64,000 nucleotides of DNA from an uncultured Acidobacteriota bacterium (GTDB taxonomy: Bacteria; Acidobacteriota; Thermoanaerobaculia; Multivoradales; UBA5704), in assembly GCA_963718645.1 (NCBI GenBank), contig OY970373.1, forward strand, positions 4,202,452 through 4,266,451. The letters are read 5' to 3'. The stretch's first letter is position 1. The number at the start of each line of letters is the position of its first letter. A model generated the notes under the pieces. That model ran no database searches and had not been told where the DNA came from. It was given only the letters and a program-made list of their open reading frames with translations. Both the position numbers and the translations under genes were made by a program. Of this stretch, positions 15,008 to 40,937 are shown in pieces.

Positions 15008-15925
15008 ATGGTGCAGCCTGTTTGGAAGACGCCGCGCGACGAGAGCGAATGGCCGGACGATGAGAACGGCGTCACGCTCCTCCAGCGCTGGGTCGAACGC
15101 CCCGACGGCAGCAACGAGTTGCTTGAGATCCCGCTAACGCCGGAGCTTTTTCTCGACCCGCAGCTCGAGGACAAAATGGTCCAAGGGGAGTTTCACGCCA
15201 GCCTGATGGCGGAGTTCAGGGAGTTGCTGGGGCGGTACTTCCATGGCCAGCCCGGCGTCAAGGTGCTGATGGACGTCAAGCACCCGCTGGGACGCGGCCT
15301 TCCCGGGCCCGCGCCGGACATCTCGATCGTCCGAGGCGTCCGCAATCCGGAGCGCAAGCGCCGCAGCTTCAACGTCGTCAAAGAGGGCGTCGTTCCCTCC
15401 TTCATCCTGGAGATCGTCTCCCCTTCTGACGCCCGCATTCGCCGCACCGACGAGGTCGACAAGGTGAAGCTCTACGAGCGGATCCAAGTCCAGGAATATC
15501 TTCTTGTGGACGTGCCCCGGAGAGGGACGGAAGGACGCTTCCGGCTCAAGGGGTACCGTTTAGGCCTGGATCACTGTTATCAGCTCATCGAACCAGATGA
15601 GGCCGGGCGCGTTGCCTGCAATACGGTGGGTCTCCTCTTCGGCGTCGCTCCGGATGGGGATCGGATCGAAGTCTTCGAGATCGCGAGCGGAGCGCGGCTG
15701 CGGACTCCGCAAGAGGAAGTAGAGGCACGCGAAAGGGCCGAGCGAGTGGCGGATCGAGCCGAGAAGGCCCGTGAAAAGGCCGAGCGAGTGGCCGAGCGAG
15801 CCGAGAAGGCCCGTGAAGTGGCCGAGCGAGTGGCCGAGCGAGCTGAGAAGGCCCGTGAAGTGGCCGAGGAGGAACTTGCCCGCCTACGGGAGGAGATCGA
15901 ACGGCTCAAGAGGTCTGACCTGTAA
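15008..15925 (+). CDS. Uma2-family (DUF820) putative restriction-endonuclease-like protein with a C-terminal coiled-coil repeat
   Basis: MVQPVWKTPRDESEW...SFILEIVSPSD...YLLVD is the Uma2/PD-(D/E)xK fold. The C-terminus is ERAERVADRAEKAREKAERVAERAEKAREVAERVAERAEKAREVAEEE. Confidence 0.7.
   Translation: MVQPVWKTPRDESEWPDDENGVTLLQRWVERPDGSNELLEIPLTPELFLDPQLEDKMVQGEFHASLMAEFRELLGRYFHGQPGVKVLMDVKHPLGRGLPGPAPDISIVRGVRNPERKRRSFNVVKEGVVPSFILEIVSPSDARIRRTDEVDKVKLYERIQVQEYLLVDVPRRGTEGRFRLKGYRLGLDHCYQLIEPDEAGRVACNTVGLLFGVAPDGDRIEVFEIASGARLRTPQEEVEARERAERVADRAEKAREKAERVAERAEKAREVAERVAERAEKAREVAEEELARLREEIERLKRSDL
15737..15862 (+). repeat. 42-bp x3 in-frame tandem repeat inside the Uma2 gene (14-aa AERVAERAEKAREV units)
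   Basis: GCCGAGCGAGTGGCCGAGCGAGCCGAGAAGGCCCGTGAAGTG-type units begin at 15737, 15779 and 15821. Confidence 0.7.
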
Positions 15926-16958
15926 GTTTTTCCACCACCCGATCCCACGTCACCTCCCGCACCCTCCCCTGCCCCGCAAGTCCCATCGCCCTCGCCCTTT
16001 CACGGTCTTTATAGAGCAGATCGATCCGTGCTCCGATCTCCTTCGGCGACTCGGACGAGCCGATGAACCCGTTCACGCCGTCCTCCAAGAATTCGAGCAC
16101 GCCGCCGGCGTCCGTGGTGCTGATCACCGGTTTGGCGGCTTTGAAGGCTTCGACGGTCACGTAACCATAGTCCTCGTCGTAGGGGGCGTAGTAGACGCCT
16201 AGGCAATTGGCGTAGTGCTCGACGACGTCGCGGTCGTCCACCCAGCCGAGGAGCTCGACGCGGCCGGTCAGGCCGTTGCGATCGATCAGGTTTTGCAGGT
16301 TCTCGCGCTCGGGGCCGGTGCCGGCGATGCGGCAGCGGACGGGGGTTTCGGTGTGCTTCATGGCGCGGATCAGCAGATCGAATCGCTTCAAGGGATCGAG
16401 ACGGCCGATCGAAAAGATGTAGTCGCCGAAATCCCCAGGATGGTAGAGGCGGTCGAGCTTCGGTGGCGGATAGAGCACCTCGCCCTCGACTCCATTGAAG
16501 CGCCGCAGGCGGTCTGCCACGTTACCCGAGATGGTGTAGACGGCCCGCGCCTCGGAGAGCGTGCGGCAGTCCATGGCGCGGATCATCTCCAGCGCCTTGG
16601 CGTCGCGAGGTTGCGCTTCCGAAAAATCGCTGTAGGGCGTGCCCAGCAGGTCGTAGGCCTGGCGGAGCTGATGGATCAGCCAGACGACCTTGTTGGGATG
16701 TTTGATCAGATAGGAGGGGAAGCGCGTCGCGATGACGAGATCGATCCGCTTGCCGGCCGCCTCGGTGAGGTTCACCAGGCGCCAGGCGAGACTCCCTTTC
16801 AGCAGCTCGGTCCGCGTCGGCCAGTGGAAGGGGAGGGCGACGACGTCCACCTCGAAGCCGCGGCTCTTCAGCTCGTCGCGGAGGGAATCGACGAGCATCT
16901 CGGCCCCGCCGTAGGCGAACGGGATCTTGGTGGCGCAGATGACGACGCGCGGCTTCAC
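15906..16958 (-). CDS. Glycosyltransferase family 4 (GT-B)
   Basis: The GTG at 16958 gives VKPRVVICATKIPFAYGGAEMLVDSL...EGFGLVTVEA-like ...YAPYDEDYGYVTVEAFKAAKPVISTTDAGG. Confidence 0.8.
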   Translation of the reverse strand: MKPRVVICATKIPFAYGGAEMLVDSLRDELKSRGFEVDVVALPFHWPTRTELLKGSLAWRLVNLTEAAGKRIDLVIATRFPSYLIKHPNKVVWLIHQLRQAYDLLGTPYSDFSEAQPRDAKALEMIRAMDCRTLSEARAVYTISGNVADRLRRFNGVEGEVLYPPPKLDRLYHPGDFGDYIFSIGRLDPLKRFDLLIRAMKHTETPVRCRIAGTGPERENLQNLIDRNGLTGRVELLGWVDDRDVVEHYANCLGVYYAPYDEDYGYVTVEAFKAAKPVISTTDAGGVLEFLEDGVNGFIGSSESPKEIGARIDLLYKDRERARAMGLAGQGRVREVTWDRVVEKLTGQTS

Positions 16959-17377
16959 CCCGGGGGATCCTTCTCCAGCCGGCGCTCCAGCGCCTCGACC
17001 CGCGCGCCGAGTTGACGCACCTCGCGGGCCGTCCGCTCCTGCGATTCCACGAGGTCCTCGATCAGCCGCGCCGCCGCCTGATTGAAACCGTTCTGCTGCT
17101 CCAGGATCGGCCGCAACAGCCACTTCAGGAATAGTTTGTAGACCGCCTTTCGCGCCAGGACGATCAACCTCCCGAGCCCCGGCCGGTGCGAAAAGGCGAC
17201 CGGTTCTTGCACGTACTCGCGCTGCTTCAGGGCCAGCAGGCCGTTGAGCGTCCCCTCCCCACCGGCCCCCAGCGTGGCCGACTCGGCGCGGCGCTGCCGC
17301 ACGCCGGAGCGGACTTTCTGGAGGACCTCGTCGACGCGGAGGTCGTCGGGGGACGGCGCGGGAGTGGGGTCGGGCAT
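16955..17377 (-). CDS. Hypothetical small protein, coiled-coil C-terminus, translationally coupled (GTGA) to the downstream GT4
   Basis: MPDPTPAPSPDDLRVDEVLQKVRS...VRQLGARVEALERRLEKDPPG. It is not an obvious shadow ORF, but no family was recognised. Confidence 0.35.
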   Translation of the reverse strand: MPDPTPAPSPDDLRVDEVLQKVRSGVRQRRAESATLGAGGEGTLNGLLALKQREYVQEPVAFSHRPGLGRLIVLARKAVYKLFLKWLLRPILEQQNGFNQAAARLIEDLVESQERTAREVRQLGARVEALERRLEKDPPG

Positions 17378-19671: not shown

Positions 19672-20808
19672 GTGGCGGTGGACGTCAACTCGTTCTACGA
19701 GCCGCTGACCGGCGTCGGGTGGTACCTGCATCAGATCCTGGTCCATCTCGCCGGCCGCGACGATCTCCGGTTGCGGCTCTACGGCCAGAGTCTGGTCGAG
19801 ACCGATCCCGGCGCTCCCCAGCCGGTGGTCGACTTCCCGGCGTTCTCGACGGGAGTTGCGATCGAGCGGGTGACGTACGCGGCGCCGGACGGCCTCGTGG
19901 TCCCCCCCTGGCGCGCGGACCAGATCCTCCGCCGCCTCGCTCCCCTGCTGATGGCGGCGGACGGCAACGCGGTGCTGTTCGCACCGAACTATCTCTTCCC
20001 GCCGCTCTTCCGCTTCGCCGCGGGGGAGCGGGTGGCGACGATCCACGACCTCGGCGTCATCAAGGTGCCCTGGGCGGTGCGGCCGGACTCCGGCGTGGCC
20101 CTGCGCGAGCGGCTGGAGCGCACGCTCTTCGCGGCGGACCTCCTGCTGACTCCCAGCGAGGCGGTGCGGCGGGAGCTGATCGGCATCGGCGTCGCTCCCG
20201 GCCGCGTGCGGGCGATCCACCACGGCACCGGCGTCCTGTCCAAGGCCGCGCCGGCAACCCTGCCGGCGGCCACCCCGGCGCGCTTCGCGCTCCACGTCGG
20301 CACGATCGAGCCGCGGAAGAACGTCGCGGTCCTGCTCGCGGCCTGGCGGCGGATGAGGGCAGCGGGAATCGGGCCGCCGCCGCTGGTGCTCTGCGGCGGC
20401 TTTGGCTGGAACGCCGAGGAGATCCGCACGGAGATCGACGAGGCCGCGCGGGAAGGCTGGGTCGTCCATCCCGGCTATGTGACCGCGGGCGAGCTGGCCG
20501 CCTTGTACGCGGCGGCCGAGCTGGTGGCGCTTCCGTCCTTCTACGAGGGGTTCGGCCTGCCGGCAATCGAGGCGCTGGCCGCCGGGGCGCCGCTGGTGGC
20601 GAGCGACCTGCCCGTTCTGCGCGAGGTGGCCGGGGACGCCGCCCTCTACGCCACGCCCGACCGGCCGGATCTCTGGGCGGAGGCGATCGCAGCGCTGCTG
20701 GCGGACGCGAATCTGCGCGCCGAACTCCGGCGGAAGGGTCTGGAGCGCGCCAGGCTCTTCGACTGGACGCGGGCCGCGGCGGAGACGGCGCGTGCGTTCG
20801 GGGTCTGA
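19672..20808 (+). CDS. Glycosyltransferase family 4
   Basis: GTG start. VAVDVNSFYEPLTGVGWYLHQIL...GTIEPRKN...PSFYEGFGLPAIEALAAGAPLVAS. Confidence 0.8.
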   Translation: MAVDVNSFYEPLTGVGWYLHQILVHLAGRDDLRLRLYGQSLVETDPGAPQPVVDFPAFSTGVAIERVTYAAPDGLVVPPWRADQILRRLAPLLMAADGNAVLFAPNYLFPPLFRFAAGERVATIHDLGVIKVPWAVRPDSGVALRERLERTLFAADLLLTPSEAVRRELIGIGVAPGRVRAIHHGTGVLSKAAPATLPAATPARFALHVGTIEPRKNVAVLLAAWRRMRAAGIGPPPLVLCGGFGWNAEEIRTEIDEAAREGWVVHPGYVTAGELAALYAAAELVALPSFYEGFGLPAIEALAAGAPLVASDLPVLREVAGDAALYATPDRPDLWAEAIAALLADANLRAELRRKGLERARLFDWTRAAAETARAFGV

Positions 20809-20836
20809 GATCGGTATTTTGTGCCAAATTGGCGTC

Positions 20837-21050
20837 AAACATTGTTTTTTCCGTTTTTCCATTGTTTGGCGGCTTCAAACATTGTTTGCGAGCCCCAAAC
20901 ATTGTTTTTTCGGCTCGAACAATGTTTGAGACGCTGAAACATTGTTTGAAGCCCTGAAAGATTGTTGGAAGCGCTGGAACATTGTTGCAGGCGGGAAAAC
21001 ACAGTTTGAAGCCCTAAAACATTGTTCGAAGCCCTGAAACATTGTTCAAG
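20837..21050. repeat. Eleven direct tandem units with an exact 20-bp period, each having a near-palindromic core AACAWTGTT (AAACATTGTT)
   Basis: Cores lie at 20841, 20861, 20881, 20901, 20921 (inverted: GAACAATGTT), 20941, 20961, 20981, 21001 (ACAGTT), 21021 and 21041. The region is locally AT-rich within a 70% GC genome. It sits between the GT4 stop (20808) and the GT-C start (21083), and the last unit overlaps a putative -35. Confidence 0.85.
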
Positions 21051-21082
21051 CCTCTTTTCGCCTGCGGTAGACTCCGCCTCCC

Positions 21083-23254
21083 ATGTTCAAGGGCCGCTAC
21101 GACCACGCCGCACGCCTCGGCCTCTATTTCCTGATCGCGGCGATCCTGCTCGCCGGGGCGGCGGTGCCGGACGCACTGCGCACCTTCCAGGTGCTGACCT
21201 TCGCGGCGATGCTGGCGGCGCTGGGGATGGCCGGGTCGCGGCTCGCCCGCCGGCTGGTGCCGGACTTCGGACCGGCCTCGCACGGCGTGGCCGCCTTCTC
21301 CTTCGCCGTGGGGATCGCCGTGGTGCCGGCCACCTGGCTCGGGCAGATCGGCTGGCTGCGGCCGGCGCCCTTCCTGGCCTGGACGGCGGTGGCCTTCCTG
21401 CTCTCGCGGCTCCTGCCCGTCCGCGGCCTTGCCGAGGAGGGACCGGCCCCCGCGACCTCAGCGGCGCGCTCCTCCCGCCTCGACCTCGCCCTGATCGTGG
21501 CGGCGGGGCTGGCGGTGGCCCTCGCCGGCCTCTACGACATGGACCGGCTGCGCTGGGCGCCGGCGGGGATGCACGGCTTCGACGACACCTCCTACCACCT
21601 GTCGGAAGTCGCCACCTGGATCCGCTCCGGCGACCTGCGGATGATCCGCTTCTCGATGGGCGACCCGAGCACCCCCTTCTACCCGGTGCTCGGCGAGGTG
21701 GCCTCCTGGGTGCTGATCGCGCCCTTCCGCGACAGCGACGTGGCGGCGCGCTGGACGCAGCTCTTCTTCTCCCTCGCCTCGTTCCTGGCCGTGGCCGCGA
21801 TCGCCCGCCGGCTCGGCCTGTCGCGGCGGAGCGCCGCCCTCGCGGCGATCACCTACGCGGGGATCTACCACGTCTTCCCGATCCTCGCGGTGGCCGCCGG
21901 CAACGATCCGGCAACCGCCTTCTTCACCCTCGCCGGCGTCGACGCCGCGATCGCGCTGGCCCGCCGTCCCCGCCTGGGGACCACCGTGACGGCCGGCGCC
22001 GCGCTCGGCCTGCTGCTCGCCACCAAGTACATCGGCGTGCTGTTCGCGCCCGTGATCCTGGCGATGCTGGCGGTAGCGGTCTGGATCGAACGGCGCCGCA
22101 GGGAGCCGGCCGAGCGCCCGCCGGCGCGGCGGCTCGCCGCTCTGGCCGCCCTGCTCGCCGTCACGATGGCGATCACCGGCGGCTATACCTACCTGCGGAA
22201 CGCCGTCACCACCGGCAACCCGATCTTCCCGGCGCCCGTCTCGATCGCCGGCATCGAGATCCTCCCCGGCTGGTGGGGGGTGTCGACCGCCGACCGCGCG
22301 CACGAGCCCGAGTTCCGGATCGACCTCTGGCACTTCCTGACGCGGAGCTCGAAGCTGTTCGGCGGCTACTTCCCGTTCACCCTGCTGCCGGCCGCCCTGC
22401 TGGCCCCCCTCCTGGCGCTCTGGCGGCGGCGCTGGCTGACGGCGATGACCTTCCTGCTCGCGATCGCCTTCTTCCTCGAATTTCTCTACCTGATGCAGGA
22501 CCATCGCGACATCCGCTACTTCCTGCCGGCGATCGCGCTGGCGGCCGTGGCCTTCGCGTGGCTGCTCGAGATGGGCGGACCGCGCGTGGCGATGCCGGTC
22601 CGCGGGCTCCTCCTCGCCTGGATCGCCTTTCAGGAGGTGCGGCGGGTGGGCGAGACCGGCGCGGCGCATCTCGCGGCGGCGGTGGCGGTGGCCGTCGTGG
22701 CCTGGCTGGTGGAGATCGCCTGGCGCCGGGGGCAAGCGCGAGCCCCGCGAGCCCAGGCTCCCGTGGGGCCCTGGATCGCCTGGGCCACCGCGATCCTGGT
22801 CGCCGCCCTGGCCCCGGCCCTGGCCTGGGGGATCGACCGCTACCAAGCGGTGAAGCTCGAAGGCCTGCCGGCGGTGGCGGCGCTGGAGCGGCTCACCGGT
22901 CCGCGCGGCGCCCGCGTGGCCTACGCGGGCTACAACCAGCCCTATCACTTCTTCGGCAGCCGCTTCCAGAACGACCTCCAGATCGCGCCGCGGAACCGCT
23001 CCGTCGACGCCCAGTACTACCGCTGGGGGGTGCGGATGGCGAACCCCTACGTCGAGGGCTCGTACTCGCGGTGGAAGGAGATCCTCGACGACCTCGGGGT
23101 CGAGTGGGTGGTGACCGTGCGCACGCCCTGGGAGGACCCCGAGCACCGCTGGGTGTCGAAGCGGACCAGCGACTTCGCCCTCGCCTACCAGGACCCGGAA
23201 GTGGAGATCTGGCGGGTGATCGACGCGGCAGCGCCGGCGGGATCGGCGCGATGA
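21083..23254 (+). CDS. GT-C fold membrane glycosyltransferase (ArnT / PMT-like), second copy
   Basis: MFKGRYDHAARLGLYFLIAAILL...GFDDTSYHLSEVATWI (loop DD/DE motif), about 13 TM segments, and a C-terminal soluble domain. The TGA overlaps the next ATG. Confidence 0.75.
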   Translation: MFKGRYDHAARLGLYFLIAAILLAGAAVPDALRTFQVLTFAAMLAALGMAGSRLARRLVPDFGPASHGVAAFSFAVGIAVVPATWLGQIGWLRPAPFLAWTAVAFLLSRLLPVRGLAEEGPAPATSAARSSRLDLALIVAAGLAVALAGLYDMDRLRWAPAGMHGFDDTSYHLSEVATWIRSGDLRMIRFSMGDPSTPFYPVLGEVASWVLIAPFRDSDVAARWTQLFFSLASFLAVAAIARRLGLSRRSAALAAITYAGIYHVFPILAVAAGNDPATAFFTLAGVDAAIALARRPRLGTTVTAGAALGLLLATKYIGVLFAPVILAMLAVAVWIERRRREPAERPPARRLAALAALLAVTMAITGGYTYLRNAVTTGNPIFPAPVSIAGIEILPGWWGVSTADRAHEPEFRIDLWHFLTRSSKLFGGYFPFTLLPAALLAPLLALWRRRWLTAMTFLLAIAFFLEFLYLMQDHRDIRYFLPAIALAAVAFAWLLEMGGPRVAMPVRGLLLAWIAFQEVRRVGETGAAHLAAAVAVAVVAWLVEIAWRRGQARAPRAQAPVGPWIAWATAILVAALAPALAWGIDRYQAVKLEGLPAVAALERLTGPRGARVAYAGYNQPYHFFGSRFQNDLQIAPRNRSVDAQYYRWGVRMANPYVEGSYSRWKEILDDLGVEWVVTVRTPWEDPEHRWVSKRTSDFALAYQDPEVEIWRVIDAAAPAGSAR

Positions 23255-24360: not shown

Positions 24361-24478
24361 GAAAGAACACGGACGGACACGGACGGACATGGACGAGCAC
24401 GGACCCAGGGACCGCGGGACCGGCCTCCGGTGGTTTATCGTCCGTGGCGGTCCGTGTGGGTCCGTGCTCGTCCGTGCA
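24361..24478. repeat. Repeat family D: long imperfect hairpin of ACGGAC-rich arms immediately after the stop codon (TAGGAAAGAACA...)
   Basis: GAAAGAACACGGACGGACACGGACGGACATGGACGAGCACGGACCC ... GGGTCCGTGCTCGTCCGTG. A second copy lies at 40839-40937 after recA. Confidence 0.6.
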
Positions 24479-24541
24479 GGTCATGGCGCGCAGGCAAGAT
24501 TCCGTTAGAATCACGATTTCCTGGCCCCTCGGAGACCCCGT

Positions 24542-28525: not shown

Positions 28526-28861
28526 ATGGCTACGAGTGCAAGCAAGCCGGCGAAGAAGACCGCCGCCAAGAAGACCGCGACGAAGGCCGCAGCCCCGGCC
28601 AAGAAGACCGCCGCGAAGACCGCGGCCAAGAAGCCGGCGGCGGCGAAGAAGACCGCCGCGAAATCCTCGGGCGCCGCCAAGAAGGCCACCAAGACCGCTA
28701 CCGCCAAGAAGGCTCCGGCGAAGAAAGCCACGGCCGCCAAGAAGGTGACCGCAGCGAAGCCGGCCGCCGCGAAGAAGACGGTCGCGAAGAAGACGGTCGC
28801 CAAGAAGACCGTCGCGAAGAAAACCGCCGCCAAGAAGACGGCCTCTAAAAAGTCTTCCTGA
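28526..28861 (+). CDS. Histone H1-like Lys/Ala-rich nucleoid-associated protein (AKKTAAKK repeats)
   Basis: The RBS AAAGGAG lies 7 nt upstream of the ATG. MATSASKPAKKTAAKKTATKAAAPAKKTAAKTAAKKPAAAKKTAAK... throughout. Confidence 0.65.
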   Translation: MATSASKPAKKTAAKKTATKAAAPAKKTAAKTAAKKPAAAKKTAAKSSGAAKKATKTATAKKAPAKKATAAKKVTAAKPAAAKKTVAKKTVAKKTVAKKTAAKKTASKKSS

Positions 28862-39797: not shown

Positions 39798-40838
<1,041 letters not shown>

Positions 40839-40937
40839 GAAAGAACAGGGACGAGCACGGACGAACAGGGACTCACACGGACCGGCACCGTGTTCGTCCC
40901 AGTGAGTCCGTGTCCGTCCCTGCTCGTCCGTGGGGTG
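40839..40937. repeat. Repeat family D copy 2: long ACGGAC-rich hairpin between convergent recA and the DUF4388 gene (probable bidirectional terminator)
   Basis: TAGGAAAGAACAGGGACGAGCACGGACGAACAGGGACTCACACGGACC...GGTGTTCGTCCCAGTGAGTCCGTGTCCGTCCCTGCTCGTCCGTGG. Confidence 0.6.

Follow-up and report, generated by a model that had tools for sequence, protein, structure and literature searches.

An AACAWTGTT array between two glycosyltransferase genes as a probable copy of a dispersed, phased repeat family of Thermoanaerobaculia

Analysis of a 64,000-nucleotide stretch of DNA from an uncultured Acidobacteriota bacterium (hereafter the window) led us to conclude, with a probability of about 0.6, that the array of AACAWTGTT cores between a GT4 and a GT-C glycosyltransferase gene is one copy of a lineage-restricted, dispersed family of phased protein-recognition cores and was inserted into an operon junction. 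The family appears to be restricted to Thermoanaerobaculia and is non-coding; its members measure ~40-350 bp and hold from 2 to at least 11 units of 20/21 bp, and many of them have a recognisable head and tail and decayed edge units. It is apparently undescribed, as the initial annotation, which knew of no such motif, had supposed. The literature on Thermoanaerobaculia repeats and on tandem palindromes of convergent genes yielded no description of an AACAWTGTT family, and the 9-mer occurred in full-text literature only in primers and eukaryotic contexts. Rfam 15 gave no match in the window at the gathering threshold, and an E-value search of the array returned only far-sub-threshold eukaryotic miRNA hairpins. 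The array had no blastn match among plasmids (72,556) or phages, and a scan of viral contigs revealed single chance pairs only, locus L139 being an unrelated AT-rich repeat.

The array and the element that carries it

The register print-out shows 11 units at an exact 20-bp period (window 20838-21046), the cores starting at 20838+20k with k running from 0 to 10. TRF returned the same period, as did a separate repeat search with nine consecutive spacings of exactly 20, bearing out the arrangement first described. Seven cores read AACATTGTT (20838, 20878, 20898, 20938, 20978, 21018 and 21038) and one, with a central A, reads AACAATGTT (20918), so that 8 of the 11 are exact AACAWTGTT; the other three are degenerate (TCCATTGTT at 20858, AAGATTGTT at 20958 and AACACAGTT at 20998), where the initial annotation had counted a single degenerate unit. 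A two-core pattern allowing up to 2 mismatches matched 10 times in the window, each time within the array, vs 0.00 times in 100 dinucleotide shuffles, and AACAWTGTT was found nowhere else in the 64 kb. Each unit consists of the 9-bp core followed by an 11-bp spacer with a GC-rich centre, and the units are 60-84% identical over 49-nt frames. Given that the period is not a multiple of 3, the array is non-coding; a 9-bp core with 11-bp, mutually related spacers is also unlike CRISPR, where repeats of at least about 23 bp alternate with unique spacers. On both points the initial annotation had judged correctly.

The gap from the GT4 stop to the GT-C start (20809-21082, 274 bp) has a GC content of 45% vs 69.6% in the window, confirming an AT-rich tract in ~70% GC surroundings, and the whole inserted element falls inside it. 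The element opens with the head TTTGTGCCAAATTGGCGTCA (20818-20837, plus strand), which contains a second palindrome, GCCAAATTGGC, at 20823-20833, and closes with the tail CAAGCCTCTTTTCGC (21047-21061, plus strand), whose TCAAGSC-type end is seen again at other arrays. The head segment GTGCCAAATTGGCGTCA is identical in the related locus L069, and L150 keeps the palindrome and its flanks with few changes; with near-identical flanks (TGTGCCAAATTGGCGCCA) the head palindrome also starts non-orthologous arrays in L041 and L078. Within the array a foldback spans 20860-20964, its arms (20860-20906 and 20918-20964) being 77% complementary and its centre being the spacer of units 4/5. Outside the element, at the right-hand edge of the insertion, lies the start-proximal block CTGCGGTAGACTCCGCC (21062-21078, plus strand); its TAGACT (21068-21073) precedes the GT-C ATG by 9 nt, and the block as a whole stops 4 nt short of that ATG. 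The block may serve as a -10 element, the mRNA then being near-leaderless, or as a signal for coupling, and it has no Shine-Dalgarno sequence upstream.

Both flanking genes are on the plus strand. Upstream is the GT4 glycosyltransferase gene (19672-20808; Glycos_transf_1, 2e-26), the last few codons of which vary among lineages at the insertion point, and downstream is a gene for a PMT/GT-C-like membrane glycosyltransferase of 723 aa (21083-23254). Scanning 20500-21400 detected neither a sigma-70-like promoter nor an intrinsic terminator, and the proposal that the array ends at a putative -35 of the GT-C gene was thus not confirmed. The strong intrinsic curvature that had been expected fared no better: in a wedge-model path the gap was more curved than 99% of random windows, but 11.5% of composition-matched shuffles were at least as curved, and on that figure we rejected curvature as a distinctive property.

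The window carries repeats of other kinds. A second, GC-rich foldback family is present at 24362-24480 and 40838-40935; both copies begin with AGGAAAGAACA(C/G)GGAC and consist of ~4 tandem 10-bp units (ACACGGACGG-like) followed by inverted units (GTCCGTG...). A 42-bp tandem repeat (15723-15868; 3.5 copies, 92% matches) lies just upstream of a minus-strand GT4-like ORF (15906-17123), and a 15-45-bp tandem repeat at 28547-28846 on the plus strand encodes a Lys/Ala/Thr-rich KKTAAKK... tract resembling histone-H1-like or AlgP-like basic DNA-binding tails.

Distribution among junctions, genomes and gene contexts

Comparison of 12 orthologous GT4/GT-C junctions revealed the array in three (the window, L069 and L150) and its absence from nine. 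The gene order GT4, GT-C, three GT4 genes and Bac_transf was kept in the longer contigs, and in part in L151. L069, with a GT-C 94% identical to that of the window, has 11 units, two internal units being replaced by a copy of units 4-6 with the phase kept, and L150 (GT-C 81% identical) has 8; unit number therefore varies among relatives (11, 11 and 8), as had been anticipated. Since L069 (an NCBI MAG) and L150 (JGI) are independent assemblies that carry the array at the same junction with sequence differences, we excluded an assembly artefact, the explanation that the initial annotation had named as fatal to its reading.

Among the junctions that lack the array, L149 (GT-C 89% identical) is GC-rich and has no core in the 90 bp covered upstream, and L141 and L151 (80%) hold other, GC-rich repeats of 370-480 bp. 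In L142 and L146 (70% and 67%) the gap is only 11-15 bp, and the GT4 stop codon lies inside the start-proximal block, as TAGACT or TAAACT. The junctions of L143, L144 and L147 (67%) contain REP-like hairpins, and that of L145 (68%) a genuine GTAG-type hairpin. The block itself (TAGACT or a close variant) was kept in all 12 junctions and, in the close orthologues (at least 80% identity), with or without an inserted repeat: TGCGGTAGACTCCGCC (21063-21078 of the window) is identical in L069, L150, L141 and L151, and L149 has A for its first C, while distant orthologues (67-70% identity) show a TAGACT, TAAACT or TACACT variant at the same position. A metagenome scan with the GT-C protein returned only four loci, at 67-78% identity, none of which has the array.

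The patchy presence of the array together with the conserved block indicates that it is a lineage-specific insertion into an operon junction. Because GT4 and GT-C were then 11-15 bp apart, they were co-transcribed ancestrally, and since the array entered this ancestrally tight junction in one sublineage it is not a conserved regulator of the GT-C locus. In the simplest history, the junction repeatedly accepted different repeat elements, the AACAWTGTT element entered one sublineage, and its copy there has grown or shrunk since then by roughly one unit at a time. The repeats found in two of the array-free junctions (L141 1409-1888 and L151 9633-10000) are degenerate, of ~20 bp (GAGGGCAGYCAYYGCC...), and one assembly calls a 95-aa ORF across them; part of the former (L141 1410-1560) forms a GGAC/GTCC-unit foldback similar to the second family of the window.

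Scanning one genome per species (185,579 species) for two cores 20 bp apart returned at least 117 stretches and at least 40 arrays, the window included, with four or more cores at 20/21-bp spacing; the other arrays have 4-10 units. Among the matches listed, all arrays of at least four cores came from 57-71%-GC MAGs labelled Thermoanaerobaculia or Acidobacteriota, often several to a MAG (at least 7 in MFD09368.bin.3.159), and AT-rich genomes gave single chance core pairs only. Over all arrays the core-to-core spacing was 20 bp in 222 cases, 21 bp in 39, 19 bp in 6 and 22 bp in 1, and in each of 13 double spacings of 40-42 bp one unit had decayed. The unit consensus across the family is AACATTGTTTGATGGCTTCA or AACATTGTTTCGGCGGCCTCA. 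Arrays of one genome have the same degenerate unit at the same position as well as a common head and tail, and are therefore related by descent as whole elements; some paralogous pairs also share 90-150 bp of decayed-unit flank. Short members of 2-4 units exist, among them a perfect 2-unit palindrome, AACATTGTTTTTTGGGAAAAAACAATGTT (L103). Isolated cores are rare, with 5 distinct singles (at most 1 mismatch) outside arrays in the high-GC loci examined. A Thermoanaerobaculia MAG encodes a protein 94% identical to the GT-C protein of the window, and at least 120 GT-C homologues, down to 53% identity, bear the Thermoanaerobaculia label wherever a name is given, which assigns the window to a Thermoanaerobaculia genome.

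Matches outside Acidobacteriota proved to be unrelated. In the Muribaculaceae MAG62 (L080 150-260, L085 1430-1480 and L012 5870-5910) they are perfect or near-perfect 20-bp GAACCAAGTTGAACAATGTT (x6) and 10-bp tandem repeats, so that this gut sequence containing the AACAWTGTT 9-mer looks like an independent, much younger repeat. The Hyphomicrobiales match (L050 4000-4650, CBDCEV010000038.1) is a ~700-bp tract of a MAG contig at 35% GC, dense with short GTT/AACA-type repeats spaced by ~10 bp (GTTAAACAGTGTT, GGTTGAACA); it is iteron-like and may be the origin of a plasmid or phage. In Nocardia donostiensis (L087 6959-6987) and Nocardioides lijunqiniae (L096 7783-7811) paired CGAACAWTGTTCG sites 20 bp apart near a gene start resemble an ordinary operator of two GAAC-N3-GTTC boxes, and the remaining matches are chance pairs in AT-rich genomes.

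To describe the surroundings of the arrays we called genes in the fetched loci with our own codon-usage log-likelihood caller, trained on the long high-GC3 ORFs of the same loci, and not from curated annotation. Array gaps with two confident neighbours (n = 31) were convergent in 16 cases, tandem in 12 and divergent in 3. The convergent share (16/31) compares with 11% by count and 14% by length among the remaining gaps in these loci (p = 3e-8 to 7e-7), and the divergent share (3/31) with 28-30% (gaps of at least 60 bp, or by length; p about 0.01). Only four pairs of array loci are orthologous, and the loci are thus a largely independent sample. The array often starts 14-65 bp past a stop codon. 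The 64 neighbouring proteins belong to 99 Pfam families, none of which occurs in more than three of them, and no association with transposases, regulators or polysaccharide genes was found among these neighbours (Uma2 x3, MerR x2). The initial annotation had advised a genome search for arrays and their context; such arrays do exist in relatives, but they share no polysaccharide context. The orientation bias, the unrelated neighbours and the rarity of single cores together indicate that what the family marks is the 3' ends of genes, as opposed to promoters, the members of a regulon or loci for polysaccharides.

In the loci examined no gene was flanked by arrays in the manner of a composite element, and nothing obvious beside 2-unit members pointed to a small regulator that might hint at the binder. 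Uma2 (PF05685) putative nucleases are the commonest neighbour family (3/64) and show no mutual blastp similarity; they could be there by chance if Uma2 genes abound in these genomes. Another dispersed repeat of ~80-116 bp, in both orientations and ~1.2 kb from arrays (L009 at about 1750-2050, L073, L036 and L110), is unrelated to the AACAWTGTT family.

Constraint on the cores, a possible mechanism and its rivals

Five pairs of orthologous arrays showed 20 substitutions in 368 core positions vs 67 in 386 spacer positions (odds ratio 0.27, p = 2e-7). In one comparison (L023 with L113) the array is ~96% identical, matching the neighbouring coding sequence, and the adjacent non-array gap is ~70% identical, as judged by eye, with an indel. 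The slow evolution of the cores could alternatively be caused by gene conversion among units rather than by selection. The central W correlates with the asymmetry of the flanks, and the units therefore have an orientation. Arrays differ freely in orientation pattern, some being all direct, some TTTAAA and some alternating, and they hold to the 20/21-bp period whatever the orientation; between the window and L150 the central base changed and the spacers were not flipped. Positions flanking the core (±1 to ±6) showed no excess of Watson-Crick covariation (observed/expected 152/141, 73/76, 86/92, 41/56 and 63/93), on which ground we rejected selection for a unit hairpin. An invariant core in a 20/21-bp phase is the pattern predicted for a symmetric dimer recognising double-stranded DNA. 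The phased protein-binding array proposed in the initial annotation is a plausible idea that has gained indirect support, with cooperative dimer binding the best reading of the slow cores and the 20/21-bp period; its other half, regulation specific to this locus, is not supported.

A 9-bp palindrome is shorter than one helical turn and suits proteins that read one major groove, such as those of the ribbon-helix-helix type. The core would be the putative recognition site of a symmetric dimeric DNA-binding protein. Because the step is 20-21 bp, successive dimers would sit on nearly the same helix face, and dimers loaded side by side along nearly one face of the double-stranded DNA may form a phased nucleoprotein filament of ~130-220 bp. 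Since the reverse complement of the core is again the core, units can be lost, doubled or turned round when cores recombine with one another, and such recombination would produce unit turnover, length changes quantised at 20 bp and mixed orientations, foldbacks among them. The putative binder may be an enzyme responsible for spreading the elements, or it may belong to the host, and a host binder at gene ends could act as a roadblock, an insulator or a topological barrier. For the window copy, within an operon, the most likely local effect would be to modulate read-through past GT4 into GT-C and the four transferase genes that follow. A more far-reaching possibility, which we consider less likely than not, is that a dedicated, lineage-specific dimeric protein polymerises on the phased 20/21-bp AACAWTGTT arrays at the ends of converging transcription units, and occasionally inside operons. 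The arrays would then serve as roadblock terminators, insulators or supercoil barriers, kept by host selection while recombination between cores spreads and remodels them. If this is true, the arrays of Thermoanaerobaculia would be to bacteria what arrayed terminator or fork-barrier sites are to eukaryotes.

Three other explanations were weighed against this one. The elements may be purely selfish or decaying foldback MITEs or minisatellites with no host function, in which a transposase or gene conversion keeps the cores and the bias towards convergent gaps merely reflects where insertions are tolerated. The patchy occupancy of an orthologous junction that takes other repeat families too is what such elements would leave behind, as are paralogs with a common head and tail, the inverted units in which many arrays end, the turnover of units and a second foldback family of 10-bp units in the same window. 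We nevertheless consider this explanation unlikely, given that at orthologous positions the cores evolve ~3 times more slowly than the spacers after insertion, that the array of L023 and L113 is conserved about as well as neighbouring coding sequence, and that lineages with GT-C orthologues of only ~54% identity still have the same core and period; nor did any transposase family recur among the neighbours or a target-site duplication come to light.

Slightly less likely again is a REP/BIME-like RNA element, transcribed in 3' UTRs or intercistronic RNA, whose hairpins stabilise the upstream mRNA and attenuate read-through. The distribution of the arrays agrees with that of REPs, which PMC3733652 places downstream of coding regions where the genes on either side are unidirectional or convergent. 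The position of the window copy within an operon recalls REP325 of E. coli, which lies inside the yjdMN operon and whose hairpins are reported to stabilise upstream mRNA and attenuate read-through (bioRxiv 10.64898/2026.03.23.713779). The window array also folds as RNA better than shuffles (z = -4.1 and -4.5 on its two strands), and some members form near-perfect long hairpins. Against this, the unit hairpin is tiny, a 9-bp palindrome giving a stem of at most 3 bp, and the flanks show no compensatory covariation. Foldability is not conserved: z ranges from -1.7 (L005) to -12 (L066, a near-perfect 140-nt foldback). Such variable foldability follows from the palindromic nature of the cores. Furthermore, both orientations occur inside one array, so that an RNA motif would differ among units; the GTAG/CGTC tag is missing, 20500-21400 holds no terminator-like site, and Rfam gave no match above threshold. 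Several members, such as L066, are near-perfect long foldbacks and would also fit a hairpin-based mechanism acting on single-stranded DNA or RNA.

Highly improbable, finally, is the activator filament, phase-variable switch or other locus-specific operator array for GT-C and the polysaccharide locus that the initial annotation had envisaged: the array does end 21 bp before TAGACT and 36 bp before the GT-C ATG, and unit number does differ in relatives, but it is missing from this junction in nine related lineages that share both the gene order and the start-proximal block, the genes were ancestrally 11-15 bp apart and hence co-transcribed, arrays elsewhere are dispersed beside unrelated genes and mostly in convergent gaps, which have no promoter, the scan of 20500-21400 detected none of the sigma-70 type, and units only 60-84% identical are poor substrates for slippage.

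Most of what is known of dispersed intergenic repeats such as REP, BIME and MITE concerns Proteobacteria, and what these repeats do is a matter of debate. The class of Acidobacteriota that carries the AACAWTGTT family is little studied and for the most part uncultured. The family has an unusually clear signature, namely a 9-bp palindrome that does not vary, a strict period equal to two turns of the helix, AT-richness in a 70%-GC genome, constraint on the core after insertion and a five-fold enrichment in convergent gaps. It thereby offers a tractable case for deciding between repeats as protein-loading platforms at gene ends and repeats as selfish DNA, and the array is a precise bait for finding the candidate binding protein. 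It is also a warning for annotation that such arrays are not to be read as promoter elements of the nearest gene.

Comparison with known systems

Plasmid iterons and centromeres are arrays of similar build: R6K has 7 repeats of 22 bp, R1 parC 10 of 11 bp, and pSK41 parC 4 of 20 bp, which are bound by the ribbon-helix-helix protein ParR. Like iterons and type II/Ib centromeres, the AACAWTGTT arrays consist of 4-12 short sites at about two helical turns, which in those systems are bound cooperatively by small dimers that build a filament or solenoid. Unlike them, they exist as many chromosomal copies in unrelated contexts, prefer convergent gaps and have no adjacent rep or par. We therefore rejected a plasmid iteron or origin, which would sit beside a rep gene with an AT-rich unwinding element and DnaA boxes at a single locus of each replicon, in view of the many chromosomal loci with unrelated neighbours and the lack of similarity to 72,556 plasmids. 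We likewise rejected a centromere of the parC/parS type, expected beside a parMR or parAB operon, the neighbours in the window being glycosyltransferases and no family recurring among array neighbours. The iteron-like sites suggested by the initial annotation are set aside with them, given the many chromosomal copies and the absence of a recurrent rep or par neighbour.

Operators of the MetJ/Arc/CopG or ArgR type are tandem palindromic boxes in helical phase, 2-5 of them in the promoters of a defined regulon, ARG boxes recurring every 20-21 bp. The AACAWTGTT boxes are likewise compact, palindromic, tandem and helically phased, but there are 6-11 of them, with almost no isolated sites and mostly at positions other than promoters. 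Together with the absence of the array from 9/12 orthologous junctions and the predominance of convergent gaps, this led us to reject a transcription-factor operator of GT-C.

Foldback MITEs and the pneumococcal BOX element (boxA-boxB(n)-boxC) are closer in architecture, being non-autonomous, of 100-350 bp, with a head and tail around variable tandem units. Several AACAWTGTT members are long inverted repeats of tandem units, as in foldback MITEs, and insertion is polymorphic among lineages; the family is indeed a small non-coding element present or absent at orthologous sites, as is expected of a MITE. As regards terminal inverted repeats, the two ends of many arrays run inward as AACATTGTTTTTTCC(C)GT.CA and L066, L023 and L041 fold as long hairpins, while the window copy, L005, L038, L054 and L115 are mostly direct repeats. 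Unlike in MITE and BOX elements, the core is retained in each internal unit and remains constrained after insertion. No target-site duplication was recognised at the window junction or at other array ends, and neither a parent or autonomous transposon nor an associated transposase was found for the arrays.

The resemblance to REP, BIME and REPIN elements (E. coli BIME-2 and REP325, Pseudomonas REPINs) lies in short palindrome-containing units found alone, as inverted doublets (here L103) or in tandem runs of at most about a dozen; with foldback MITEs, REP/BIME clusters are the nearest analogues. The AACAWTGTT arrays are also extragenic, dispersed and multi-copy, are placed for the most part past the ends of genes where the neighbouring ORFs are tandem or convergent, vary in presence among relatives and in some copies lie inside operons. 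REPs carry a conserved unpaired GTAG or CGTC tag at one end (PMC3733652). The AACAWTGTT arrays differ in having no such tag, a strict 20/21-bp phase and an orientation that does not alternate regularly; their core is AT-rich in a 70%-GC genome and only a 9-bp palindrome without a stable unit hairpin, and no RAYT (Y1 transposase) gene was seen near them (no family in more than three of the 64 neighbours). With an extragenic distribution like that of REPs, but with neither the tag nor a unit in the form of an imperfect palindrome of 20-40 bp with a stable stem-loop, the family was not assigned to REP/BIME.
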